From Flaccisagitta enflata (lineage: Eukaryota), in the NCBI GenBank assembly GCA_965153355.1, contig OZ231126.1, forward strand, positions 12,400,001 to 12,464,000: DNA of 64,000 nt, read 5' to 3'. Of this stretch, positions 14,540 through 64,000 are shown piece by piece. The notes below the pieces were generated by a model. That model saw only the letters and a program-made list of their open reading frames with translations. It was not told the DNA's origin and did not search any database. Within the stretch, counting starts at the first letter, position 1; each line of letters opens with the position of its first letter. Both the position numbers and the translations under genes were made by a program.

Positions 14540-14678
14540 TGACGTGCTGTGATGATGATTGTGATGATGATGATGATGTGATGATGTGTGATGGATGATG
14601 ATGGGCGATGATGTGATGTGATGATGTGTGTGTGATGTGTGTGATGTGTGTGTGTGTGGTGGTGATGATGATGGTGAT

Positions 14679-14721
<43 letters not shown>

Positions 14722-14736
14722 CGATGATGAAGATGG

Positions 14737-14783
<47 letters not shown>

Positions 14784-14788
14784 TTGAT
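13878..14788. repeat. Mixed (GAT)n/(GT)n microsatellite; insertion site of the LTR element
   Basis: Direct reading; degenerate (GAT)n continues at 28875-28920. Confidence 0.9.
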
Positions 14789-15697
14789 TATATTCTCCCA
14801 CGTGAATACTAGTTTCGACTCTGGGTTAGCTTTGTTTGTAGATATCTCTGACTGACTGACGATGGTAGACGCAAAGGAATTTGGGCGTAGATTGGAAAAT
14901 GGCGTGACGATGGTCTCTTTGATGTGGTAAAAATTTCAACAATCTGAGATGGGGGAGAAAGTAAAAGGGGAAATTGGGCATGAATAAATGGTCAACCAAT
15001 GCATGAAAGCAACATGAGATCAGGATAGACATGGACAGAAACAGCCAATAACAACATGTACATCTTATGCAGAGGCCATGAAGCCAGATCCGTACACTGC
15101 CCCCGCCCTGCCCATCCCACTAAATTCACCCATATCACCCAATAGTTAGTTGACCGGACAGACGATAAAAACAGACGATAAAACGCCAAAAACAGACAAT
15201 AAAACAATAAAAAACCATACGACAAAAACAATGATAAAATACTAAAACGCTAAAACGATAAAACTTACTTTAGGCCCAATTTCCTTGGTTTCCAGCCAGC
15301 GTCGTGATCGTCAAATAAGTCAGGCGTCCGTACATAAGTCTCTGAAATAAAAGGATGAGAGACTTATGAAAGATGAGAAATTCCAAGGGCGCAAAACATA
15401 AAAATCAAGCAAAATATCAATCATTCCATTAAGAAGCGATGCCATAATAACGATATCTATCCGAGATAAAAATGCGAAGCATAAAAAACACGACGATGAA
15501 AAATGTAGAAGAAGAAAATACATGATAACATGTACTTCCAAGCGAATAAAAGAACATCAAAATCCATGCGCAACCATATGGTTCATGGTTAAATTAAATG
15601 GAAACAAAAGGCATCGAATTGGACAAAAAGAGAGAAAAAAGCATTCACGCGAAGAACATCATCATTCCCATACTTATAAATAGCACACATTTCCACA
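14789..15697 (-). repeat. 3' LTR (909 bp)
   Basis: Direct repeat of 27970-28874; on the minus strand it begins TGTGG immediately after the polypurine tract. Confidence 0.95.
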
Positions 15698-15712
15698 CTC
15701 TGCCCCATTTTT
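15698..15712 (-). other. Polypurine tract (plus-strand primer)
   Basis: Minus strand AAAAATGGGGCAGAG directly abuts the TG start of the 3' LTR. Confidence 0.9.
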
Positions 15713-16768: not shown

Positions 16769-18826
16769 TTACTGCGGCGGCTGCTGATGGTGTTGCTGCT
16801 GCTGCGGCTGGCGGCCTGGATTCCAAGGGCGCCTCTTTTTCTTTGGCGCTGTCTTGGGAGCGTCTTTGGCGCTTTGCGCAGTCGTCGAGACGGAAGGCCG
16901 ACTTCCAGTTTCTGCAGATGCTGCTGGAGATGAAGATGCTGTCGCAGTCACAGGAGCTAGAATGGCGCGAGGATCTTGCTGAATACAGACGACGTGTTTA
17001 ACAGATGCTGCCGCCGACGCCGTCTGCTGAGATCCCGCCGCCTCCTTTGCCTTTGCATCCGCACCCTTTCTCGCTGTCTCCAACTGCTTCTCCAGTTCCG
17101 TCACTCGCATATCGCTCTTGACCTTCGCATCAAGCGCAATCATTGCCTTTCTTCTCGAGTCCGCGATGTTGGTCTCAACTCGAGATTTTTCCGCCATGTC
17201 CCACAGCTGACGAGCACATTCAACTCGCTGAGCGTTGCTGAATGATTGGTAATATGTCGGCGGTAGGAACGATGCAAGTCTTGACAACTGTCGCTTAGAG
17301 GCATTGCTCCGAGTTGCCGCACATAGGCGTAGCAGATGTTCGCTGATGCGATGTCCAGTATCGGTGTCAAGAACCGTCGACGAGGAGATTGGCGAATCCG
17401 TCTCCTGTTGCTGAGGCGCTGTTGGTCCTTTAGCTTGCTGTTTAGGCGCCGCAGAACCACTCGCGCCCGCTGGAGGCTGAATATCGCCTTTTGCCTTCCC
17501 TTGCGCTGCTGCTGCTTCCGGCCGCTGTTTAAGCTCCTTTGCCTTCTTTGACGCGGACGCCGCTGAAGGCGCAGTTGCTCCCCCGCTACCCGAAGCTATT
17601 GCCGCTGCGCTGGGAACCTCCTGCTGCTGAGGAGGAAGTTGTTGCTTCTTTTTGTTGTTATTGTTTTTGCCTTTGCCTTTGCTTTTGTTATTGGCCGTGG
17701 CTTGAAGCTGTTGTTGCTGCAGCTGCTGCTGTTGTTGTTGCCGTTGCTGCTGTTGATGTTGTTGTTGCTGCTTTGGCTGCTGTTGTTGCTGCTGCTGCTG
17801 CTGAGGATGCGCCCTCTTCTCCTATCGACGCCTTTTTGGGTTGGGAGTTTCGTCACGAGGATCCGGCCGCTGCTGATTTGGGGGATGAACCAATGCCGGA
17901 CGCGTTTGACGATCTGATGCTGCATTGGTGGAAGAAGTCGCCGGTGAGTTTGCGGCTGCAGCAAGAGATGCTTGAGTCAAATTCTTCCTCGACGCTTGGA
18001 CGACACGTCGAGCCTCCTTGAAATTCTCCCTTTTCTTTTTCTGCCTTCCTTGTCTGCGATCCAGGGTTTCAAACCCTAACTCACACTGTGTAGCCGATGA
18101 TCGCATCTGCTTCTCCGAATTGCAGCATATATTGAGTTTGGAGAAGGCCTTGAAGACCAACGACTCTGACTCATCTGCTGGGTCAGTGCGATGGTAAAAC
18201 CAGCGTGCTTGCTTCCGCTGGATTCTGACCTCAGGAGAGTCTTTGTCCACTTCCGGGTCAATGGGCGCCTCCTCCTTTTCTTCTGCCACCACCACCACAT
18301 CCATCCCCTCCTCCTCCTCTGCCGCCTCCTCCCCATCGACCTGAGAGTCTTGATCTTTGCTTCCGCTGCGATGGTCTGCAGCTTTTAATCGCTCCTGAAG
18401 AAGGGCTCTCGCCTCCGGTGGAGCCGGTCCTCCAAATCCAGGAGTGAAAATGCGACGGGAAGCTTGTGGAAGGACGGATGATCCCGACGACGAGTTGGCG
18501 ATGGAGACGTCGTCGACGGGCCGCTGCAACTTCACTCTACGTTTGTTTCCTCCCGAGATGGCAACGACGAGGGGAGGGAGAGCGGAAGAAGAAGCGTGGT
18601 CGGCCGGCTGTTGGAAATTCGCCGACTCATCATCCTTTGAGAGGTTGAGGTCGCCGCTGAAGGCCGCTTTCGTAGCCGCCTCCACCTCCTCCTCAAGCGA
18701 CGCGACGGAATCCGTCTCGAAGTCTTCATCCCGCTCTGGAGACGCCATCAGACGATCGAGATCATAAGATCCACCCGCCGTCGACGAATCCATTTCGGCC
18801 TGAAGACGCTGCGCGCGCGATGGCAT
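16769..18826 (-). pseudogene. Extra ORF of the retrotransposon between pol and 3' LTR (about 685 codons, one internal TAG), unknown function
   Basis: Track ORFs 17822-18826 and 16769-17287 are in the same frame. The sequence between them translates without stops (poly-Q, K/A-rich) after the single TAG at 17822-17824. Confidence 0.75.
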
Positions 18827-19188
18827 CTTGACTCCGACGAATCGACTTCAAGATGCAGACTGACGTGATGTTGGAGTTCGACGTCAGCGGAAGCTTTGAA
18901 AATCACGTAAGACGAATGAACTGTGTTTGGACGAAAGCATAGGAAATAGCATGATATCTACATATATACAAAGCAGTGAACCAATGTTTAAATTTTGCAT
19001 GAAAATGAACATCACAATGTGCCAATATGAGGAAAGAGTTGAATGCATGGATGAATAGAACCAAATATGAAGACGTACATCTCTTTATGTCAGTTATGAG
19101 CAAACAGAGCAACAATCATTCACATCTATAGTTACTAATAGACAGGCCCATGCGCCTAAAATCTCTCTCTCTCAAAACTTAGCGTTTT

Positions 19189-22100
19189 TTATGAGTCCAT
19201 TTCCAGCCGCACAATCTTCGTGCGATCCCTCGTAACAATTCTTCCGTCAGCGCGTCGCACATGCGCCCGCCGGACATAGGGCGATGTGCCTTCAACGTCG
19301 ACGACCCTCCCTAGGCTCCAATTGTGTCTGGGAACAGCCTCGTGGACGATGACTACAAGATCATCAACCGCCAAGTTCCTCTCGGATTTTGTCCATTTAC
19401 TCCGCGCATGAAGAAGGCTCAAGTACTCAGAACGCCACTTTTTCTAAAAAGCATCCACTCGAGATTGGGCGCGCTTCCATTGGACACGTGTGGACTCTGC
19501 GTCGAAGTTGACGCCGTGCTGCAACAGATCCATAGGAGCGCTTCCGGAAGTGGATGGCGATAGGATGTGATTTGGCGTCAGCGCCGATGGATCACTTGGA
19601 TCATCACTCAGCGCTGTAAGAGGGCGGCGGTTGAGAATACCTTCCACTTCGATGACGGCAGTGTGGAAGGTGTCGACGTGCAACGTGGCGCCAGATGATA
19701 TGGAGGCGAGATGGCGCTTGAACATTGCCACAACTCGTTCCCAAACACCGCCATAATGCGGCGTTCGGGCGGTGATGAAATCCCATTGGAGGCCTCGTCG
19801 TTGACGAGCGATTCCACTCTTCCATCTCCTTCTTGAGGATATTGTTGGCGCCTATCAGGTTGGTTCCTCGATCAGACGTGAATCGTCTAATGCCCGGGCG
19901 CCTGGCTGCAAAGCGTATGATGGCGTTGATCATGGAGTCCGCAGACATGTTGTAGAGCAGTTCCACATGAACGGCGCGGGAGACAAAGCAAGTGAAAACT
20001 GCCACCCACACCTTATGGTCCGCTCTGCCATTCATTTTAACATTGAAATGTCCCATTACATCCAATCCCGTCTCTGCCAAGACAGGTGCAGGATTCACTC
20101 GATTGGATGGCAATGGCGCCATCTGCTGATCCGCGTGCCTTTTAAAGTTCCTCTGGCATCTAAAGCACGAGTGAACGACGCTTTTAAAGGCCTGAAGACC
20201 TCTAGTGATCCACGCGAATTGACGCAGTTGGCATAGGGTATGCTTTGCACCAGCATGGAAGTCATTATGATGAACATGGCGAATTAATGACTTCACGTTA
20301 TTGTCGTTTGGTGGAAGAATGAAGGGAAATTTGATGTCGTTTGAGATGTCGGCATTTACCAATCGGCTGCCGACTCGAAGGATATTGTCATTGTCGACGA
20401 AGGGGTTGAGCATCCGCATCTCTTTGTTCTTGACGATGAACTCATGACGACTATTTGGTGTATTCACTTTTCCCGCCTCCAATTGGGCTATCACCTCTCC
20501 ATAATTCTGCCGCTGCACGGTCTTGACGAGCTGTTTCTGCGCTTCCTCCAGATGGACTTGCGTCACTTCCGGTTTGGGGAGGAGATCCTTTGCCGCTCTA
20601 GTCTTCGCCTTTGGGAACAATCGCCATCGCCGGACTGCAATGAAGAGCATGGCGTTGACGCGGAGTTTGTGCGTCCACTTCCCCCGAGATGCGGCTGCAC
20701 GCAGCACCGCGTCGAATTCTTTACTCTTATCCTCGACAGCAGCATAGAGCGCCGCCACGTGGACAGAGACAGGGTACGTCGCGATGTTTGTCTGCGGCAA
20801 TTGATCTTCAGGGAGACGTAAAAAATCCGGACCGTTGTGGAATTGACGCCACTTTTCCGCCTCATGAGATTCGATTCCACGAGAGCAATGGTCGGCGGGG
20901 TTATTGGCGGAGTCAACCCACCGCCACTGCTCTGGAGTTGATCCTGCGTGGATTTGGGAGAGACGATTGGCGAGGAAGACAGGTCTTGGGCATGATGGGT
21001 TATATATCATCTTCAAAGCGGCCTCTGAATCTGACCATAGTCTGATGTTCTTCTCCTGCAGATTCAAAGTCTTGTTGACGAACCGCTTGAGCTGAATCGC
21101 CTTTTCAGCAGAGACGATTTCCACACGAGGTACACTATTGTGATGAGATGCCCTCTTTGGATTGAGAGGCACCACGTGTGACTTTGACCCCAATATTGTC
21201 ACATAGACCGAGCCGTCGGAGTTGACTTGACGACGATATGCAACAGCACCAAATCCACCTTTCGGCGCTGCATCGCAGAAAATCTCGATGGTGACGTTGT
21301 CAATGTCACCGTTCCACCACCTTTTGACTCGGTATTGCGAAAGAAGAGGCCAAGAGGAAGTGTATTTGAAGAATGATTCTTCCAACACCTCGTCAAGTGA
21401 AGAATCCCATCCTGTCTGTTGTGGACGACATAGTTGGAGATGACGTCGTCTTATGTATTGGCTTGGACTCCAAAAGCCGAGTGGATCATAGAGTTTGGCT
21501 TGCATGGAGACCAATTGACGTGGTGTTTTCGCCCTCATTGTCTTAAACTCGTCGTCGCAGATGAAGACAAAGGCGTCTTCAGACGGAAGCCACGAGACTC
21601 CCAACACTTTCGTCGGCTTGTCATCGTGGTCTTGTTTATCTGCGATGGGAATGGCGACGTTTGGATCTCCTTCCATAAGCTGATGATGATTACTTTTCCA
21701 CTTCACCAACTGGAATCCTCCATCACCCATTGCCGACTTCACTCCCACTTTCAACTCCAACGCCTCGTCGACTGTATCACCACCTCCGCTTCCGTCGTCG
21801 ACGTAAAAACCATGGCGGATAAAATCGTAGACGTTGGGAGGGTAATATGGTCGAATGACTTTGGCGTGGTGTCTGACGGTGAAGCTAGTGACAAACGAGC
21901 TGGAGAGGCTTCCAAAGACGTGGGAAAGAAACATTCAAAATGGCGAGGCGGAGGCTTTTATCCTTAAACCAGAAGAATCTGAAGAGATCAGCATCATCAG
22001 GGTGGACTCTTATTTGGTGGAAGAACGCCTTTATGTCACACATAAAGGCGATCTTCCACTGGCGAAAGCGCATCAGGATGTCCATTAAACTGTTCATCAA

Positions 22101-23187
22101 GTTTGGGCCACCTACCAACAGGTCATTTAAACATACTCCGTCGGTGGCAGCCCGTGCATCGTGACATACCCTGGTTTTACCCCTCAACTCCACTATGTCA
22201 CCGTGCATCAAAATCACCAACGACCAGCTAGAAATCCCACCAACCACCCAACCCACCCAAAACACCATCACCGTGCATCAAAATCACCAACGACCAGCTA
22301 GAAATCCCACCAACCACCCAACCCACCCAAAACACCATCACCGTGCATCAAAATCACCAACGACCAGCTAGAAATCCCACCAACCACCCAACCCACCCAA
22401 AACACCATCACCGTGCATCAAAATCACCAACGACCAGCTAGAAATCCCACCAACCACCCAACCCACCCAAAACACCATCACCGTGCATCAAAATCACCAA
22501 CAAGCTAGAAATCCCACCCCCACCCAAAACACCATCACCGTGCATCAAAATCACCAACGACCAGCTAGAAATCCCACCAACCACCCAACCCACCCAAAAC
22601 ACCATCACCGTGCATCAAAATCACCAACGACCAGCTAGAAATCCCACCAACCACCCAACCCACCCAAAACACCATCACCGTGCATCAAAATCACCAACGA
22701 CCAGCTAGAAATCCCACCAACCACCCAACCCACCCAAAACACCATCACCGTGCATCAAAATCACCAACGACCAGCTAGAAATCCCACCAACCACCCAACC
22801 CACCCAAAACACCATCACCGTGCATCAAAATCACCAACGACCAGCTAGAAATCCCACCAACCACCCAACCCACCCAAAACACCATCACCGTGCATCAAAA
22901 TCACCAACGACCAGCTAGAAATCCCACCAACCACCCAACCCACCCAAAACACCATATATGTGGAGAGGAAGGTACCAGCGCGGCTTAATGATATCCTCGT
23001 CGTCGTCAATGCTGTCAATCTCAACCGCCACGCCTGTTTCATAGAACTTCTCGACTTCTTTGAAGACACGCTCTTTGAAGGCCGGATCACGATTGAAGCG
23101 GAAGCGCTGGTTGACGAGCCGCTTCATGGCTGTAGGCCGAGACTTCACTTTGCGTAATATCTCCATGATCTTTTCAAATGCGAATTT
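19189..23187 (-). pseudogene. pol: pol: reverse transcriptase, RNase H, integrase
   Basis: RT: RWYLPLH/IVELRGKTRVCHDA, CDIKAFFHQI, FYVDD. RNase H: IFCDAA, RVEI, WSDS, NPADHCSRG. Integrase: H..H/C..C, LDVMG, SDRGTN, VWERVV, LNRRPL, WSLGRV. Lesions: tandem insertion 22199-22956, frameshifts near 21940 and 19790, TAG at 19444-19446. Confidence 0.95.
22199..22956. repeat. Tandem array of a 70-bp unit (about 11 copies, one internally deleted) inserted in RT
   Basis: Unit ccgtgcatcaaaatcaccaacgaccagctagaaatcccaccaaccacccaacccacccaaaacaccatca starts at 22201, 22271, 22341, 22411, 22481 (short), 22538, 22608, 22678, 22748, 22818 and 22888; flanked by tatgt at 22194-22198 and 22957-22961. Confidence 0.95.
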
Positions 23188-23937
23188 CTATGTCACAGGC
23201 GCAAAATACTTTTTAGTCACATTGCAGAAATAGATCTTTTTTTCCAGCGTATCACAGGCGCGTTTATTTTCAATCGAATCGCCCATTTCTTCAGAGGAGA
23301 CGACAGATCCATAATCATGGTAGAAAATTCGGTCAAAACTTTGATGTAAGTCGCTGTTATCCACCGAAATAGCGTTAATTGATGCGACATCTAAACCTTT
23401 CTTCCCAGTTTTTCCACTAATCGTCCAACCGAAACTGCATCTGAAGCATGTTAAAGACCCTGGAGGACCTCGACGAAGCTCTTGAGCGATGGCTGCGTCC
23501 GAATGAGCGGCGCCAACAATCATTTTGACGCCTCCTGTCACCTCCGGGAATCTTATGCCTCTGACGTGAGGTTGGTCGGAAAGATCTCGTAGAAATGGGG
23601 GCATGTCTTTTTCACTCGTAAGTAAATCCCCCACCAGCGTGTCGTTGACATCAATGATGTATTCCGAGTTGGTGGAGCGAAGAGTGAATGACGCTAAAAG
23701 ACGGTTTTCAGTCACACAATTGTCCACTGTAACTACTTTCATTTGGACCATATTCGTTGAAATGCGCAGATGTTTGATGACGTCGTGGCTGATGACATCG
23801 CGATCTGCGCCACTATCTATCATCGCAAAGATTGTCATTTCTTCTCCAGACGCACAATTTACAATCACTACAGGGACGATGGGACGGACGACGTCGTCGA
23901 AAGATGACACGGATCGCGACGCGGCCGTCGCCGCCAG
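23188..23937 (-). pseudogene. pol: pol: aspartic protease region
   Basis: FAMIDSGADRDVI (D-S-G active site) and SFGWTISG. Same frame as Gag past the TGA at 23938-23940; ends at TAG 23188-23190, probably a Trp-to-stop mutation. Confidence 0.9.
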
Positions 23938-26900
23938 TCATGCCTCGACGGGGGGAGTGATGACATTGGCGTTTGTAGCGGTCGTCGTTGGAGGTGCTGA
24001 AGCTGGAGTGGTGGAGGTGGAGGAAGATTGGTCGAAGTTGGCGAATGGAATGCCATTGTTAGTCTTTTCTCCTCCTTTTTTCGCCTCTTTACCATCCCCT
24101 TTCTTCACCCATGTGCGTCCGTGGAGAATGGTGGCGTGCTGTTTCTTGCAGGTTTGACAGGTTGGTCTGTTGGTGCAACCCTTTGCCGAGTGGCCACTGG
24201 TGAAACAGTGGAAGCAGAGTCGGCATGATGCCAATTTTTGTACGCGTGCGTCGACGTCGAGTGAAAGGAGCTGATTGCACTCTTCCGTCGGATGCATACC
24301 GCTGCAGACGTTGCATTTGTCGGTCGACTGCATCCTTTGCTTCCCGTTGGTCAAAACGTCGTTGTAGGTTGGTGGATTTTCACCCGTTGCCACCGCTGCC
24401 ACCGCTGCGGGCTTACTCTCCACCCCTTTATTGCGTTGGATGACAGCCCAAGTTTCAATCATGTTGACCAAATTATCAAATGAAAAAGGGATGCCTTGCA
24501 ATTCAAACTCGTGTTGTTTTTCCCAAAACTTGTCCGCCAGATGTGGCACTCGTTTGTTAATAACTTCCTGCAAGATTTCCTTTCTGTAGCACTGTGGCAA
24601 TTCTCCACATGTCTGCGCAATTTTCTTTGTCTTCAGCAGTCGTGATGCGAGATGAAAATGTCTCTTGTGATCAGCGGATGAGATTTTCGATTCAGCGGCG
24701 ATCTCATGGAATAGCGCTGGGATGTTGGCTCGTGAAGCCATGAAGATGACGTCCATCTTCTTGAAGGCAGCATTAACCTCCTCCTCTGCAACTGCTTCCG
24801 TAGTTCCAATAGCCGCCGTTTCAACTATCTCCTTCGCCGGACCAGAAAACCATTTTGGCAATTCTTGCAGAATGTCCATCTCGGTCAAACCCTCATGTTT
24901 TGCAGCATCTTTAAATTTGCGTTTCCACATCATATAATCCGTCGACGAGAGCTCCTGAAGCGGCTTCTCAGGCCTTGCTTTCTCCATTGCCTTCAAGCCG
25001 ACCTCTCTTGCCCGCATTCGATTGTCATCAGAAGCTCTCTTCAGAAACATCTGCAATGCTTCACTTTGATGAAATTGTTGCACCACTTCCGGTTGACGGG
25101 CAGTTGGATGATTGTGGTACTCTTGGTATGTGGGAGGAGGACTGATGGAGACGTATTGACCTCCCACTTTCACCGGAGATTGTTTCTTTGTGGTTTTAGT
25201 GTACCACACATCGTTGTCTTGCTGTTGTTGCTGTTGCTGATGTTGCTGTTGCTGATGTTGATGACTTCTTGGCGCATCGAAGTCTTGACGGATATATTGA
25301 TGTTTCTGCAATTCTGCTATTTGAGCTTTCGCCGCATGCAGATCAAACTGATTCTGTTGAAGAAGTTGTTGTTGTGCCGCATTTGCTTGTTTAAGATCTG
25401 CAGCATCCTTCTTAAGACGATCCATCTGACGATCTACTTCGGGAAGACGTTGAGCTGGAGCTGCCGCTGGAGTCTGGGACTTTCTTTTCTCTTCCTCTTG
25501 CATTCGTCGCGCAAACTCCTCGTCAGCTGCTTCCTGCTCTCTCCTCCTGCTCCTCACGCCATCTACATCGTCTATCAACAGTTGATCAAGCTTCAACATG
25601 TCCGCCGCCGTCGACGGAGGGTTTGGCGCCGTGGTCATGAATTCTCTCTCGAAGATCACTTCCGGCGCCGATGGGGGAATGACGGCAGACGGCGGTTGCT
25701 GATGAAGAGGAAAGGATTGAGGCTGAGGTGTAGATTTAACTTTTCCTCCTCTCTTTCCTTCCCCAGCCTTCACACTTGATATTTGCTGCTTAACATGGGT
25801 TTGCGTTGGTTGTTGATGTTGAGGATTGGATGCTATTTGAGGATGTTGACGCGTTGCAGGGATATGCTGTGGCTGCTTCCTCGGCGCCATATTCTGCCGC
25901 TTCACCGCATCACCTGCCTGTATCTCACCCTTAAATTGCTCGGAAGAGACCCACTTGAAATGAGTTGTTCTTGCCGCCTCCTCCTCTTTCAACTGATTGA
26001 AGCGCAGAGACATTTGTTTATATTGCTGTTCTTCTTCTGGTGATTTGTTGCTCTGCTGACATTTAATTGGGACTGCAACCACCATTTCTGAAGTATCTGT
26101 CGCAGTAACCATTGTTGTTGCTGAAGCATCTTTATCACCTCCTTCCAACATACAGATCCTTTGCTCCGCTAACTGCTGTTGATGAAGATGTTCAGCTTCC
26201 GAGGAAGTTTTGCTACCGACAGAGAGAGGATTAAAAGCAGAAGGATTGACGACTGTAGCTACACTGAAGGCAACGTTCTGTTGCTGCAACTGGTGTTGGT
26301 GAACCTGCTGCTGCCGCTGAAGACCTGCTTGCTGTTGCAGCTGCTGCTGCTTCTCCTCCTCCTGTTGCTGCAACTGGGCTTCTTGCTGCTTTCTTTGTTG
26401 CTCAGCGCCTTTGCTCTTGCTCTTGGATCTGTTGCTGCAGCCTTTCTTGCTCCTTTTGCACCTGCTGCATCTCGATTCTTCCTTGTTGCAACTGTTGGTG
26501 ATTTTGTTGCTGTTCTTGTTGCTGCTGTTGTTGATGCGCTTGTGCTTGCTGTTGTTGCTGCTGTCTCGCTTGATCCTGCTGTTGCTGCTGCTGTTGCAAC
26601 TGTTGATGGCGTTGCTGCTCTTGCTGCTGTTGTTGTTGCTGCTGCTGCAGTTGCTGCTGCTGCTGTTGCTGTTGCTGCTGCTGTTGTTGCTGCCGAATGT
26701 TTTCTTGTTGGAGCTGTTGTTGACGCAGTTGCTCCTGCTGCACTTGTTGTTGGCGCAATTGTTCTTGCTGTTGTTGTTGATCTCGCAGCTGCTGTTGTTG
26801 TCTTTGCTGTTCTGCAGCCGCCTGTTGTTGCCTCAGCTGCTCTTGTTGAAGCCTCTGTTGCTCCTCAGCATCTTTTCTCTGTTGTTCCTGCTGCAATCGT

Positions 26901-27901
26901 TGCTGCTCTGCTTCTTGCTGTTCCTGAAGTTGTTGCTGCCGCTGCCGCTGCTGCTGCTCCTGCTGTTCGCGTTGTTGCTGCTGTTGCTGCTGCTGCTGCT
27001 CCAATCTTCGCTGTTGCTCTCGCAGATCAGCCTGAAGAGCTTCATCTCGTTTCCTTTGCTCTTGCAGCATCCATCCTGCTCTCTCTCTTTCTCTGCTTCT
27101 GTCGGCGTTGCGACGTCTTGATCTTTCCCTCGGCGTCAAACCGTCGGCCGGCTTTGATTTTGCCAACGTTGCCGCTTCGTCGAGATCATCCAAATCCGCA
27201 TCTTGTTGAGATTGCCCGCCTGGATTGACGGGTTCAATTTCGGAGATGTATCTCTCGACGTATTCATTTGCGTTTCTTGGAGGGAGAAGATGACCGTCAG
27301 GAGATTGGGCGCCATGGCGCGCCGGCGGTAGTCCCATGTATTCTGACAATCCCGGAAGTGGCGAGGACGTTCTCATCCGCGATGGAGGAGCGCCCGCGCC
27401 GTCGCGAGCCGATTCAGTCGGTATACTATTCCACGAAAACTGATGTACATTCCTCTTTCGTTGGCCGAAGTCGCCTTCACGCGCGTTGATGACGTCAGCA
27501 TGCGCCGGAAATCCCTCGCTATACGTTTCTCGGTCGAAGAACCTCATGGCGTCCCATTCACGTCTGATTCGACACAAACTCGACGCCGCGTAACGCAAGG
27601 GGTCGCTGGGCATCTCGTCGATTGCCATTTGACAAGCGAAAGCGATGTAATCGTAGACGTAGTCGCGTAGACCGTTTCTGGCGCTGTCTGAGTCCAGCGA
27701 CGCGTCTTCGTAATCGTTAGAGCCTTCTGTCGTCGCCAAAGCGGCGTCGAAGAGTTGACGACACTGATCCATTTCCTATGACAGTTCGCCCTTCATGACG
27801 CGGAGTTTTTCGGTTTTGAGACATTGGTTTAACCCAAAAAAGGACACCCGAGATGACGTAGACGCAGTTGAACGGTTATCGTCGTCGTTGAAAGCCGCCA
27901 T
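23938..27901 (-). pseudogene. gag: gag with long glutamine-rich N-terminal extension (about 1320 codons reconstructed)
   Basis: Probable start aaaATGG at 27901 (MAAFNDDD); in-frame TAG at 27776-27778; frameshift near 26400. C-terminal knuckles CNVCSGMHPTEEC, CFHCFTSGHSAKGC and CQTCKKQHATILH are typical of BEL/Pao Gag. Confidence 0.9.
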
Positions 27902-27957
27902 TTGACACAATATGCCCCGGGATGTCGGAAGAAATGTTCGAGAGGAGTCGAGTTTTA

Positions 27958-27970
27958 AAATTGTTGAAAT
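27958..27970 (-). other. Primer-binding-site position: non-tRNA, complementary to the element's own LTR
   Basis: Sense reads A|TTTCAACAATTT, and no TGG occurs until the gag start codon. Plus-strand 27960-27970 attgttgaaat is the exact reverse complement of 28114-28124 atttcaacaat. Confidence 0.7.
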
Positions 27971-28874
27971 ATATTCTCCCACGTGAATACTAGTTTCGAC
28001 TCTGGGTTAGCTTTGTTTGTAGAGATCTCTGACTGACTGACGATAGTAGACGCAAAGGAATTTGGGCGTAGATTGGAAAATGGCGTGACGATGGTCTCTT
28101 TGATGTGGTAAAAATTTCAACAATCTGAGATGGGGGAGAAAGTAAAAGGGGAAATTGGGCATGAATAAATGGTCAACCAATGCATGAAAGCAACATGAGA
28201 GATAGACATGGACAGAAACAGCCAATAACAACATGTACATCTTATGCAGAGGCCATGAAGCCAGATCCGTACACTGCCCCCGCCCTGCCCATCCCACTAA
28301 ATTCACCCATATCACCCAATATTTAGTTGACCGGACAGACGATAAAAACAGACGATAAAACGCCAAAAACAGACAATAAAACAATAAAAAACCATACGAC
28401 AAAAACAATGATAGAATACTAAAACGCTAAACCGATAAAACTTACTTTAGGCCCAATTTCCTTGGTTTCCAGCCAGCGTCGTGATTGTCAAATAAGTCAG
28501 GCGTCCGTACATAAGTCTGTGAAATAAAAGGATGAGAGACTTATGAAAGATGAGAAATTCCAAGGGCGCAAAACATAAAAATCAAGCAAAATATCAATCA
28601 TTCCATTAAGAAGCGATGCCATAATAACGATATCTATCCGAGATAAAAATGCGAAGCATAAAAAACACGACGATGAAAAATGTAGAAGAAGAAAATACAT
28701 GATAACATGTACTTCCAAGCGAATAAAAGAACATCAAAATCCATGCGCAACCATATGGTTCATGGTTAAATTAAATGGAAACAAAAGGCATCGAATTGGA
28801 CAAAAAGAGAGAAAAACGCATTCACGCGAAGAACATCATCATTCACTTACTTATAAATAGCACACATTTCCACA
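27970..28874 (-). repeat. 5' LTR (905 bp), sense TGTGGAAA...GGGAGAATATA
   Basis: By eye differs from the other LTR at about 10 substitutions plus one 4-bp indel (TCAG); lies upstream of the gag ATG at 27901. Confidence 0.95.
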
Positions 28875-29178
28875 TTGATTGATGATGAAGATGAGGATGA
28901 TGATGATTGATGATGGTGTTGGTCATGATAGTTGTGGTGATAATGAGGCTGAAAAGGAGGAGGAAAAGATGCAAGAGTTAATGGCGTTGGTATCAGTAAC
29001 CATCGATAGTGGTGGTGGAGCTAGAGTGTGTTGAATGTTGAAAAAAGCATTAATGAATGTCTCCTTTCATTAGGTTTCTCTCGTTCTCAATTCTTAATAC
29101 GCAAAAACATTTTGAGTTCTGCTAACTGGTGACATTTGATATTCTTTTTTTAAAGGATCTTCTTTTTTTATGAGAGAG

Positions 29179-29249
<71 letters not shown>

Positions 29250-34954: not shown

Positions 34955-37042
<2,088 letters not shown>

Positions 37043-58495: not shown

Positions 58496-59371
58496 AGCCC
58501 CTTTCTTATCTTCAGCTCAAACATAGGTCTCACCGCGCCTAAGGGTTCCGTCATGCTAAGACTGCAAGGTTTAAATTTTCAATTCAGTTTGCCATGTCTA
58601 ATCGATGGAGCGTCTGAAGCATGACGGAATTTGAGATTTTTTCAGGCTGAATCAACGTAATCCACACGGCGCACCTTCTGGCCTTCTTGGCCTTATTTTT
58701 CTTATTTGTCTTTAGATCAGACTGCAAAAACTGCACTTTACCGTTGTTCATATTTTATGTATTCTTCTAATCACACAAGTTGCTTGGCCATAACCTGTTA
58801 ACAATGCCCAATTGGATGGGTTGTTTACAGAAACACTGAAATAAAAAGTTAAAAGTATATGATTCAAAATTGAGTGATCGCTCAATTAGAACAACGAGTC
58901 GACTATCTATTTGCATGACTTTTTTCTTACTGTTATTTCTTGTATTTATTTTTTGTAATGTTTCCGTGTTTTGCTGCGTTCCTATATGCTTCCTTCATTT
59001 TTTAAGATGAGAGGCCCTCCAGGCACCTTAAAAATCATATCATCTTCATACCATATCATACATAATCGCATCTTGAAAGAAAAAAGAATGTTGTGTGAAT
59101 GGGAGGCGATATATCAGAGAGAGATAAAGGATCTATATAAAGCTGTCAGAGCTAGTAAAAGATCGAATGTCACCCCAAATCAACTCAGATGACAAGATAG
59201 AATTGAGGCATCCATAAAAATTTGGGAAGGAAAAGAAGCCTCAACTTTGGGTGATAATAATTTGTTATCATAAACGTCACCAACATGCCACCTGCTCTTC
59301 AGCTTCTCACCCAAAATATTACATATATTCATCCACACTAAAACTGAGAACACAACATCTGGGTACTATTT

Positions 59372-59423
<52 letters not shown>

Positions 59424-59521
59424 CAGAGAGACAGAGAGACAGAGAGAAAGAAAGACAGGCAGACAGAGAGATTGAAAGAGACAAAGAGACAGAGCGACGA
59501 AGACAGAGAGTGAGAGTTAAC

Positions 59522-62500
59522 CGGTCTTACGCACGGGTCCTGAAAAGTCGATAAAAAATTGGCAGAGATACACTATTCTTAAAAATGGTACCAATGTGTC
59601 CGGAATAACTCCCTCTAGCACACTGAACACTTTTTGGCCCAAAAAATGGGCCAAAAAAAATAGTTACAAAAAAAACCTCAAAAAATGGCCATTTTAGGCT
59701 ATTTTTTAAGGTTTTGACCCTGAAAACCACATCAAAAAGTATCCAAATATCTTCAAATTGGGTATTTACGTGTACCTGCATCCAATTCATCATTCTCAGA
59801 AAAAAAAATGACAATTTTGAAAATTCTAGGCACCTATAATGGCCCAAAATTGATTTTTCGACACTACCAAACACAGAAAAAAAGGGCTTTCCCATGCTTA
59901 AACTAGTCCGATTGTCATAAAATTTGAACTAAAGCTTCTCAACTTCCACTGCTAGTACCCCATAAAATTTTATGACAATCGGAGCAAGTTAAGATGCCTA
60001 AATTGGACCTCAAAGTCCAAAAATGAAATTTCAAAATCAAAAATCGACTTTTAGGCTGTAACAATGTCAATGTATGGCAAAAATGACTAAACCATGACCC
60101 AAAAACTGATCTTCAGGTTGATGGTGAACTAAAAAAAAATATCAGCCCTTGTTTTGCATTCCTGGCCCTCCCCCAAAAAAAAACAATCAAGGTGTTGTCA
60201 CTTGAAAACTGGCATTTTTGGCTATATTTTGAGGTTTTGACCCTAAAATCACATCATAAAGGGTCCAAATAACTTAAAATTGGGCATTCACGTGTAACTG
60301 AATCCTATTGATCATTCTCAGAAAAAAAAATGACAATTTTGAAAATTTTGGGTACCCATAATGGCCCAAAATTGATTTTTTGACACTACCAAACACAGGA
60401 AAAAAGGACTTTCTCATGCTTAAACTAGTCCGATTGTCATAAAATTTGAACTGTAGCTTCACAACTTCCACTGCCAGTGCCACATAAAATTTCATGACAA
60501 TCGGAGCAAGTTAAGATGCCTAAATTGGACCTCAAAGTCCAAAAATGAAACTTGAAATAATTGACTTCAGGTTGTAACAATGTCAATGTATGGCAAAAAT
60601 GATTAAACCATGACCCAAAAACTGATCTTCAGGTTGATGGTGAACTAAAACACAAATATCAGCTCTTGTTTTGCATTCCTGGCGCCCCTCAAAAAAAAAT
60701 GAACAAAGTGTTGTCACTCAAAAACTGTCTACTTAAAGTCTTTAGATAAAATACTTTAAGAGACATCTTTTACTACCGAGATAGCTCCAATCCATTTATC
60801 ATACGCTTTTATAGCTATTGTTGGTGCTCTGCCTGTAAGGAGACTAGTCAACCAATAATTGCAGTGATGCAAGAACAACCGGAAATACCTATAAATGCAA
60901 ACTGATCATCGAAGTGTAAGCTTCTTGTGTGGCAGAGCAGGGAACCAACCTCAATAGCCCTTTTTGGGCAGCGGCCTTGAAGGGGACAAAGTTCTGTAGA
61001 ACACAGGGGACTTTTGTTCATTCATCAATCCGTCCGTTTGTTTGTCCCCCCCCAGGCCCTCTCATGCCTGAAATCTGCCATCTCAGGCCTAAAATCTGCC
61101 CTCTCAGGCCTAAAATCTGCTCTCTCAGGCCTGAAATCTGCTCTCAGGCCTGAAACCTGTCCCTCCCAGGCCTTAAATTTGGCCTCTCTCAGGCCTGAAA
61201 TCTGCCCTCTCAGATTCGAGGCCTGAGAGGGCAGATTTCAGCCCTGCAGGAAGTTTTAGGTCTGAGAGGGCTGATTTCTGGCCTGAGAGGGCCTGGGGGC
61301 TGATGGACGGAAGGATGGACAAATGAACAAATGAACGAACAAAAGTTCCCTGTGTTCTAGAGGACTTTGTCCCTTTTGGGGCCGCTGCCCTGCCTATCAT
61401 TCCAATTTACAACTATGTGAAGCAGGGCAACGGGTATCGCTGACCACCTATTGCCCTTGGGCGACCTGTTTCATTTCAAAATAATCAAGTTTAGAAAAGA
61501 TCCAACGATTACTGTCTGTTGAGTAAATCTGACTATTGATATATTTGTCTAATGAGGGCTTTGGCTACGCGTCCCCATTGCACCTCTGGCTCCGGTAAAT
61601 GATGTCTTTTTAAGTGTCTCTGTTAAATACTATGAATTACATCATCTACTACCATTATAGGTCTGATTGTCATACAAAACTTTCTGTGGTATCAGCAGTG
61701 GCGGTTAAGAAGATATATCTCAAATCTTTTAACAATCTGACTAGTTTAAGCATGGGAAAGCCCTTTTTTTCTGAGTTTGGTAGTGTCAAAAAAACAATTT
61801 TGGGCCATTATAGGTACCTAAAATTTTCAAAATTGTCATTTTCTTTTCTGAGAATGATGAATAAGATGCAGTTAGATGTAAATGCTCAAATTAAAGTTAT
61901 TTGGACCCTTTTTGGTGTGGTTTTCAGGGTCAAAACCTAAAAAAATAGCCAAAAATATCAGTTTTTGAGTGACAACAGCTTGTTGTTTTTTGTTTTTTTT
62001 TTTGGGGGGGGGGCAGGAATGCAAAACAAGGGCTGATATTTTTTTTAGTTCACCATAAACCTCAAGATCAGTTTTGGGTCATGGTTTGTCATTTTACATA
62101 CATTGACATTGTTATTTACACCTAAGTCGATTATTTTTGATTTTCAAATTTCATTTTTGGACTTTGACCTCCAATATAGGCGTCTTAACTTGCTCCGATT
62201 GTCATAAAATTTCATGGGGGACTAGCAGTGGAAGTTGAGAAGCTACAGTTCAAATTTAATGACAATTGGACTAGTTTAACCATGGGAAGGCCCTTTTTTC
62301 TGTGTTTGGTAGTGTCAAAAAATCAATTTTGGGCCATTATAGGTACCTAAAATTTTTAATATTGTCATTTTCTTTCTCAGAATGATGAATAGGATGCAGT
62401 TACATGTAAATGTTCAATTTCAAGTTATTTGGACCCTTTATGATGTGATTTTAGGGTCAAAACCTCAAAAAATAGCCAAAAATGCCAGTTTTTGAGTGAC

Positions 62501-63690
62501 AACACTTTGTTCATTTTTTTTGAGGGGCGCCAGGAATGCAAAATAAGAGCTGATATTTGTGTTTTAGTTCACCATCAACCTGAAGATCAGTTTTTGGGTC
62601 ATGGTTTATTCATTTTTGCCATACATTGACATTGTTACAACCTAAAGTCAATTATTTTTGAATTTCAAATTTCATTTTTGGACTTTGAGGTCCAATTTAG
62701 GCATCTTAACTTGCTTCGATTGTCATGAAATTTTATGTGGCACTGGCAGTGGAAGTTGTGAAGCTACAGTTCAAATTTTATGACAATCGGACTAGTTTAA
62801 GCATGAAAGTCCTTTTTTCCTGTGTTTGGTAGTGTCAAAAAATCAATTTTGGGCCATTATGGGTACCCAAAATTTTCAAAATTGTCCTTTTTTTTCTGAG
62901 AATGATGAATAGGACTCAGTTACACGTAAATGCCCAATTTTAAGTTATTTGGACCCTTTATGATGTGATTTTAGGGTCAAAACCTCAAAATATAGCCAAA
63001 AATGCCAGTTTTCGATTGACAACACCTTGTTTGTTTTTTTTGGGGGAGGGCCAGGAATGCAAAACAAGGGCTGATATTTTTTTTTAGTTCACCATCAACC
63101 TGAAGATCAGTTTTGGGTCATGGTTTAGTCATTTTTGCCATACATTGACATTGTTACAACCTAAAAGTCGATTTTTCGATTTTGAAATTTCATTTTTGGA
63201 CTTTGAGGTCCAATTTAGGCATCTTAACTTGCTCCGATTGTCATAAAATTTTAAAGGTACTAGCAGTGGAAGTTGAGAAGCTTCAGTTCAAATTATATGA
63301 CAATCGGACTAGTTTAAGCATGGGAAAGCCTTTTTCTGTGTTTGGTAGTGTCGAAAAATCAATTTTGGGCCATTATAGGTGCCTAGAATTTTCAAAATTG
63401 TCATTTTTTTTTCTGAGAATGATGAATTGGATGCAGGTACACGTGAATACCCAATTTGAAGATATTTGGATACTTTTTGATGTGGTTTTCAGGGTCAAAA
63501 CCTTAAAAAATAGCCTAAAATGGCCATTTTTGAGGTTTTTTTTGTAACTATTTTTTTTGGCCCATTTTTTGGGCCAAAAAAGTGTTCAGTGTGCTAGAGG
63601 GAGTTATTCCGGACACATTGGTACCATTTTTAAGAATAGTGTATCTCTGCCAATTTTTTATCGACTTTTCAGGACCCGTGCGTAAGACCG
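59522..63690. mobile_element. Foldback-type non-autonomous DNA transposon, long modular TIRs of ~520-bp units, 4-bp TSD
   Basis: Ends cggtcttacgcacgggtcc / ggacccgtgcgtaagaccg; TAAC at 59518-59521 and 63691-63694; about 2 units in the left arm and about 4 inverted units in the right arm; no transposase ORF. Confidence 0.85.
60961..61471 (+). mobile_element. HINE-like family B copy nested in the foldback element
   Basis: ttttgggcagcggcc ... ggccgctgccc ... attgcccttgggcgacctgttt. Confidence 0.75.
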
Positions 63691-64000
63691 TAACTGTGGC
63701 GGTGCAAAGCGTTTTAAGGTAGTTAAATCAATTTTATTGATTTAGAGCCTCTAAAATTTTTTCTTGTAATTGACGTTAAAACGCTGAATATTTTCTCGCC
63801 CTGAATGCTTATCCACTTTCTGCTTTATAAAACAAAAACATACAATTGGAACGGTTTCATTGCGTCTGTGATGATTTTGATTGTGTCTATGTCTAAACAA
63901 TTATTTTCGCCTCAGTCAAATGCATGTGACACAAAAAGCAACTTAGTGGTCAGTTGATCGGTCCATTGGTTTGTTGGAAAATTCATTGGTCCATCGGCTC

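Follow-up and report, generated by a model that had tools for sequence, protein, structure and literature searches.

How is reverse transcription primed in an LTR retrotransposon of the BEL/Pao superfamily whose leader offers no recognisable binding site for the 3′ end of a tRNA? The question is raised by a 14.1-kb BEL/Pao element that lies on the minus strand of the 64-kb stretch of DNA analysed here (the window), and that represents a high-copy family of a marine animal. Belpaoviridae are described as tRNA-primed, with an 18-nt primer binding site (PBS) complementary to the 3′ end of tRNA-Arg or tRNA-Gly (PMC8742986), which agrees with what the original prediction had said of this superfamily. 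The element is organised as follows, from its upstream to its downstream end.

28875-28879, minus strand: upstream copy of the target-site duplication ATCAA.
27970-28874, minus strand: 5′ LTR, 905 nt; starts TGTGGAAATG and, by the target-duplication reading, ends ...GGGAGAATATA.
26402-27772, minus strand: ORF1, starting 198 nt past the LTR; its C-terminal half is glutamine-rich and of low complexity; no Pfam match.
23938-26832, minus strand: gag-like ORF, Cys/His knuckles located towards its end; without a Pfam match.
23188-23937, minus strand: ORF with an aspartic-protease DSG motif, past an in-frame stop.
22198-22955, no strand assigned: 70-bp tandem repeat in 11 copies, between two reverse transcriptase (RT) fragments.
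19604-21934, minus strand: Pol ORF of 776 aa, with the RT motif YVDD, PF05380, and the integrase zinc-binding and core domains.
15698-15712, minus strand: purine-rich tract AAAAATGGGGCAGAG, adjoining the 3′ LTR; by direct reading, the putative plus-strand primer.
14789-15697, minus strand: 3′ LTR, 909 nt; starts TGTGGAAATG; the internal arm described below is repeated at 14945-14933.
14784-14788, minus strand: downstream copy of the target-site duplication ATCAA, the sole ATCAA among 185 five-mers downstream.

A Pfam search of the ORF at 19604-21934 returned PF05380 (E 4.9e-28), Integrase_H2C2 (E 3.6e-07) and rve (E 4.8e-05), and the ORF with the DSG protease motif and the RT fragments lie upstream of this Pol ORF, giving the BEL/Pao domain order PR-RT-RH-IN. 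The Pao domain and the integrase domains thus bear out the original assignment of the element to BEL/Pao. The same Pfam search of the Pol ORF gave no chromodomain, and membership of the Ty3/gypsy chromoviruses is not indicated. Canonical BEL/Pao elements (Belpaoviridae, Semotivirus: Pao, BEL, Tas and roo, among others) share with this element the Pol domains and their order, the gag knuckles, the LTRs and the 5-bp target duplication; they differ from it in being described as carriers of a tRNA PBS (PMC8742986), whereas no TGG-initiated PBS is found here, and in a length of 4.2-10 kb (PMC8742986), as against 14.1 kb here. Two further minus-strand ORFs (350 and 341 aa), located at 16769-18847 between the integrase and the 3′ LTR and without a Pfam match at E 0.01, contribute to this excess length. 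A long CAG/CAA-rich tract coding for glutamine extends over 26269-26830, across ORF1 and the start of the gag-like ORF, and is unusual for the 5′ region of a BEL/Pao element.

The 5′ and 3′ LTRs align with 10 substitutions and one 4-nt indel as far as ...GGGAGAATATA, where similarity collapses; BLAST of the element ends gave an alignment of 917 columns, 98.3% alike. The copy in the window is not autonomous, since its RT is broken by the 758-bp tandem repeat and by frame changes. This repeat is a minisatellite that has grown inside pol (70-bp unit, 11 copies with 96% matches, 22198-22955), splitting the RT. The element as a whole is embedded in a trinucleotide microsatellite of the ATC/GAT type (14550-14788 and 28875-28990; 85 units on one side), and a (GA)39 tract is situated 300 nt upstream of it, at 29172-29249. 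Neither further copies nor solo LTRs of the element were found within the 64-kb window. Other repeat families occupy 34962-37042 and 58715-63988, with inverted copies that are 94-97% alike (for example 59522-60727 with 63690-62486).

The first TGG downstream of the 5′ LTR is found at 70 nt, so that, by the TGG/CCA requirement only, a host tRNA would have no canonical PBS to which its 3′ end could anneal; the absence of a TGG-initiated PBS after the 5′ LTR, which had been noted originally, is thereby confirmed for the 69 nt that precede this triplet. Two other sequences were considered as a PBS and rejected: TGGGAGAATATA, located within the LTR, is present in both LTRs and is therefore LTR sequence, and TGGCGGCTTTCAACG, at +70, is too distant from the LTR edge.

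In place of a tRNA PBS, the bases that follow the 5′ LTR are complementary to a segment of the LTR itself. The two arms of this pairing, and the candidate stems that flank it, are located as follows.

28114-28126, minus strand: candidate self-primer AGAUUGUUGAAAU, inside the LTR and preceded by TC (TCAGA, initiator-like).
27958-27970, minus strand: arm at the PBS position, (A)UUUCAACAAUUU; 27969-27958 are the first 12 post-LTR bases.
27972-27989, minus strand: U5 hairpin UAUUC-8 nt-GAAUA (27989-27985 with 27976-27972), ending 2 nt before the PBS arm.
27996-28002, minus strand: GAGUCGA, the U5 arm of a 7-bp stem that crosses the central duplex.
27945-27951, minus strand: UCGACUC, the leader arm of the same 7-bp stem, 6 nt past the PBS arm.

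On the sense strand, the LTR ends in ...GGGAGAAUAUA and the leader starts with UUUCAACAAUUUUAAAAC. The minus-strand bases 28124-28114, ATTGTTGAAAT, and 27970-27960, ATTTCAACAAT, are perfect complements over 11 nt, and the pairing of 28126-28114 with 27958-27970 comprises 13 bp, of which 11 are perfect and one is a G-U pair, with the last pair using the final base of the LTR. The inverted pair that had been reported (11 bp, or 13 bp with one G-U) is thus reproduced in both coordinates and sequence. Viewed from the leader, the first 12 bases past the 5′ LTR, UUUCAACAAUUU, have their pairing partner in AGAUUGUUGAAA (28126-28115), which lies within the LTR, 144 nt upstream. A primer ending in ...GUUGAAA-3′ had been expected to stop exactly at the LTR edge; the duplex overlaps the LTR by one base (A27970), and its post-LTR portion measures 12 nt, A27970 being the last LTR base by the target-duplication reading. 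A second CUUUCAAC is present in the leader at 27885-27897, 70-80 nt in and beside the first TGG, and can compete for the GUUGAAA arm. A reading of the two arms as the boundaries of a MITE-like insertion was rejected, as there is no fitting target duplication and the 3′ LTR is without the right arm.

Self-primers have been predicted in other elements from a complement of at least 10 bp that starts 0-5 bp after the 5′ LTR (PMC6317226); with 12 nt past the edge, 11 perfect pairs and no tRNA PBS, the element described here falls within that definition. This arrangement makes it plausible, at a probability that we place slightly short of even, that the BEL/Pao element self-primes reverse transcription from its own LTR RNA, as a variant of a known mechanism. 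We infer pairing in vivo, cleavage, the start site and priming as follows. AGAUUGUUGAAA (28126-28115), in the 3′ part of the LTR and at or near the RNA 5′ end, would fold onto UUUCAACAAUUU past the 5′ LTR; the element RNase H would cleave the RNA on the duplex's 3′ side, freeing a 3′-OH; and this 3′-OH would be extended through U5 to yield a strong-stop cDNA of ~145 nt ending at the cut. Two nearby stems, the U5 hairpin beside the PBS and the 7-bp stem between U5 and the leader, may keep this duplex folded as a pretzel like that of Tf1.

How often such a complement would arise by chance bears directly on this proposal. A chance level of 2e-4 had been put forward, which is 50-150 times too low. 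A perfect complement of at least 11 nt to the 21-nt zone at the LTR edge appeared in 49 of 5000 dinucleotide shuffles of the LTR (~1%), and in real window sequence outside the element, where pseudo-edges were sampled on either strand at 37-nt intervals, such a complement was present at 61 of 1935 non-low-complexity pseudo-edges (~3%), or at 157 of 2638 when all were counted. When many LTR elements are scanned, a chance level of 1-3% cannot be called small.

The complement within the LTR could therefore be coincidental, with the primer supplied by a host RNA (an internal tRNA fragment, a tRNA half or another small RNA) whose 3′ end is complementary to TTTCAACAATTT...; we regard this as unlikely, although it is the alternative that survives best. 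Priming by half-tRNAs is employed by copia and Ty5. Half-molecule tRNA primers are also documented in Ty1/copia lineages, and 6% of plant elements are without a detectable PBS (PMC6317226); a survey of metazoan elements detected a tRNA PBS in no more than 1151 of 1512, so that the absence of a recognisable PBS is common (PMC13524379). The half-tRNA-primed elements of the Osser, Bryco and Bianca lineages resemble the element in the window in having a PBS that does not start with TGG; in these lineages, the PBS matches an internal tRNA segment (PMC6317226). A host primer would also accommodate the 1-3% of controls with a perfect complement of at least 11 nt, and a self-duplex that is without robust folding support (see below). 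Against it, the window contains no tRNA gene and no Rfam family matches the LTR or leader; by eye, the PBS complement does not show the T-arm/acceptor arrangement in which a nuclear tRNA ends; and a coincidental match need not start, as this complement does, exactly at the LTR edge. The only Rfam hit in the LTR/leader, to a lncRNA, was rejected as sub-threshold (E 0.44).

For self-priming from LTR RNA, the flanking stems and the predicted RNA folds were considered next to the central duplex. The U5 hairpin and the U5-leader stem of the original prediction are both present, but each is weak alone and near chance: the 7-bp stem arises in 869 of 5000 shuffles (P 0.17) and the 5-bp hairpin abutting the PBS has P 0.024 by shuffles, in both cases under a criterion chosen post hoc. 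The candidate stems and the central duplex together would give a Tf1-like pretzel topology, with duplex energies of -12.0 and -11.3 kcal/mol. Folding of the sense RNA 28126-27930 (197 nt), which had been suggested as a check, came out no better than shuffles (z -0.31; 64 of 200 shuffles at least as stable). The pair probability of the central duplex was 0.85-1.0 within 197 nt, 0.05 within 327 nt, 0.77 within 401 nt, and 0 in the 701-nt and 1054-nt contexts; its loss in the longer contexts may be due to competition from the second CUUUCAAC. Because folding swings with context and is no better than that of shuffled sequence, the thermodynamic prediction is neutral.

The position of the candidate primer relative to the RNA 5′ end depends on where transcription starts. 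TCAGA at 28128 would set A+1 at 28126, which is the first paired base. The suggestion that the initiator-like TCAGAT would place the primer at the RNA 5′ end did not hold up as specific, given the rival TCAGT motifs at 28040 and 28036; TCAGA also occurs again at 28032. To the arthropod initiator, TCAGT is a better match than TCAGA. The TCAGT motifs at 28040 and 28036 would put the start downstream of the candidate primer. A TATA-like TATTTATA is located at 28859. Neither AATAAA nor ATTAAA, either of which would serve to define R, occurs anywhere in the LTR, where the sole variant poly(A) signals are AATATA at 27975 and ACTAAA at 28327. One contig from an RNA library (run X18, record 16) joins the leader to the LTR and reaches 28056, upstream of the TCAGT motifs, and a second (run X13, record 11) crosses 28126; since contigs cannot show starts and the libraries may hold DNA, the former shows no more than that contigs of RNA libraries extend to 28056. 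Self-priming would not strictly call for a primer at the very 5′ end, as cleavage on the 3′ side of the duplex would be enough, and any start upstream of 28114 is compatible with it.

The second alternative concerns the LTR edge itself, for which two features, each at about the 0.5% level, indicate different positions. Among 185 five-mers in the microsatellite flank downstream, ATCAA is met once, precisely at the ...ATATA junction (for one five-mer drawn at random from each side, the probability of identity is 0.033); an LTR with this edge starts with TG, ends with TA in place of CA, and lacks a terminal inverted repeat. The rival edge, at 27962 (...ATTTCAACA), lies 8 nt past the ...ATATA edge and offers a CA end with an 8/9 inverted repeat. 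Either edge leaves the element without a TGG PBS. We favour the ...ATATA edge over the 27962 edge.

If the edge has been misplaced, the LTR would be a canonical TG...CA repeat ending ...ATTTCAACA (27962), which repeats its start TGTGGAAAT in inverted form; most of the PBS arm would be an integrase recognition end, and the internal TGTTGAAAT match a by-product of a repeated terminal-like motif. The first 9 bases of the LTR, when reverse-complemented, match ATTTCAACA at 8 of 9 positions, a likeness that shuffling reproduced in 0.59% of 20000 zones of 36 nt and that 3 of 679 zones within the element show; the termini become TGT...ACA, and gapped BLAST carries the LTR pair to 27962/14782. We nevertheless consider this reading improbable. 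It needs two changes in the last 8 nt, as against a difference of ~1.2% between the LTRs otherwise (10 substitutions and one indel in 905 nt); it comes without a target duplication, unlike the ...ATATA edge with its flanking ATCAA; it leaves a perfect internal match that reaches 2-4 nt beyond the CA and that a terminal repeat does not explain; and it supplies no TGG PBS either. It is, moreover, compatible with self-priming in which a copy of the primer is retained, as in Tf1.

Roughly half of Tf1 cDNA retains a copy of the PBS at its 3′ end, and integrase-independent insertions occur at PBS-like targets (PMC11042837). By analogy, under self-priming a copy of the primer may persist on the cDNA of the element in the window. 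Retention of a self-primer copy would likewise give rise to the 27962 edge, and such a copy would explain both the mimicry of the inverted LTR start (the integrase-binding end) by the post-LTR bases and the PBS-like 3′ flank. This flank, ATCAACA (14781-14790), resembles the PBS-position bases TTTCAACA (27958-27970), and recalls the insertion of Tf1 cDNA with a retained PBS, which is suggestive only; the PBS-like flank and the clean 5-bp target duplication are conflicting signals. Three related nonamers are found in this part of the element: the LTR start TGTGGAAAT at 28866-28874, the internal TGTTGAAAT at 28114-28122, and the inverse ATTTCAACA at 27962-27970.

Other copies of the family were sought among public sequencing runs. 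Part of the stretch is present in 20 of the 24 rows listed, from 11 studies that comprise one coded organism together with marine metagenomes and metatranscriptomes, in all cases as contigs. Four of the 24 runs were compared over 27400-29000 (X1, X3, X13 and X18, with 2659, 118, 82 and 262 pieces, respectively), and the 2659 contig pieces from run X1 alone show that the family is very abundant. Among the best 40 of 145 variant rows from these four runs, no variant falls in 27958-27970 or 28114-28126, nor anywhere in 27936-28023 or 28046-28150. A 393-nt DNA contig (run X3, record 25) spans both arms and has 7 differing letters, the 6 that are listed lying outside the arms. The absence of arm variants among the best 40 of the 145 rows suggests that most copies share the post-LTR sequence, with no hint of a lost PBS; the concern raised originally, that other copies might carry a normal PBS, thus found no support in these rows. 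In these same 40 rows the arms are invariant, and offer no covariation either for or against pairing. Holes in contig cover (28057-28200 in X18 and 27886-27993 in X13) carry no weight, and the LTR edge is fixed neither by the depth steps nor by a break in the contigs at 27902/27903. A loose end at 27978 (3 contigs of X1, median 10 letters) diverges after ...GGG, but its length does not allow a subfamily to be distinguished from a flank. Many family copies have a TCAG insertion behind 28200, comparable to the 4-nt insertion in the 3′ LTR; at this position, the 5′ LTR in the window is the minority form. No relatives were found with the gag core and Pol proteins among viral contigs, with the ORF1 N-terminus among metagenome contigs, or with a 21-nt U5-end pattern among genome, viral and metagenome contigs.

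That the region has no priming role, the family being mobilised in trans via an unrecognised PBS or being an inactive lineage spread by segmental duplication, would fit an RT interrupted in the window copy by the 758-bp tandem repeat and frame changes, but is very improbable in view of LTRs ~98.8% alike with a clean 5-bp duplication, which indicate fairly recent retrotransposition, of the thousands of X1 contig pieces and the runs from 11 studies, which indicate a large dispersed family, and of the need of non-autonomous copies for a PBS in cis. An active, abundant family must have a primer for the post-LTR bases, and the only visible candidate is its own LTR RNA.

Self-priming of this kind has its closest parallel in Tf1, in which the RNA's initial 11 bases anneal to the PBS and RNase H cleaves the RNA between bases 11 and 12 (PMC7175516), and in which a three-duplex pretzel is required that is common to Tf1/sushi elements (PMC10085805). 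Like the Tf1/sushi elements (Tf1, Tf2, Maggy, Skippy, Cft-1, Boty and sushi; Tcn1 clade), the element in the window has no tRNA PBS; its own LTR RNA is complementary to the post-LTR bases over 12-13 nt, compared with 11 nt in Tf1 (PMC7175516); and its candidate flanking stems would complete a pretzel of three duplexes (PMC10085805). It differs from them in its Pol, which has the Pao domain PF05380 and is not a chromovirus Pol; in an LTR of 905 nt with the candidate primer ~750 nt in; and in an LTR that ends TA rather than CA at the target-duplication edge. The element belongs to BEL/Pao, not to Tf1/sushi, and by analogy it may work like Tf1. In plants, self-priming has been predicted for the Tcn1 clade of Ty3/gypsy and for the TAR lineage of Ty1/copia (PMC6317226). 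The TAR lineage (Houba, Osr-1) offers a second parallel, in that its self-primer was likewise predicted from the complement alone and within a superfamily that otherwise uses tRNAs (PMC6317226), although these are plant copia elements with an unrelated Pol.

The literature searched, which took in few subscription journals, gave no report of self-priming in BEL/Pao, Semotivirus or Belpaoviridae, and PMC3118150 makes no mention of PBS, primer binding, tRNA or target site. Since self-priming has already been predicted in Ty3/gypsy and Ty1/copia, BEL/Pao would be the third superfamily in which it is found, and the mechanism would not be new. It is conceivable, at rather less than an even chance, that a BEL/Pao lineage of a marine planktonic animal independently evolved Tf1-like self-priming. 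If so, the family would be a metazoan case of self-priming outside the chromoviruses, would counsel caution to annotation pipelines that label such elements “PBS-less”, and would bear on the idea that hairpin priming or self-priming predated tRNA priming (PMC3601003). Self-priming would then have been reached in all three superfamilies of LTR retrotransposons, and independence from host tRNAs would have arisen repeatedly in LTR retroelements.
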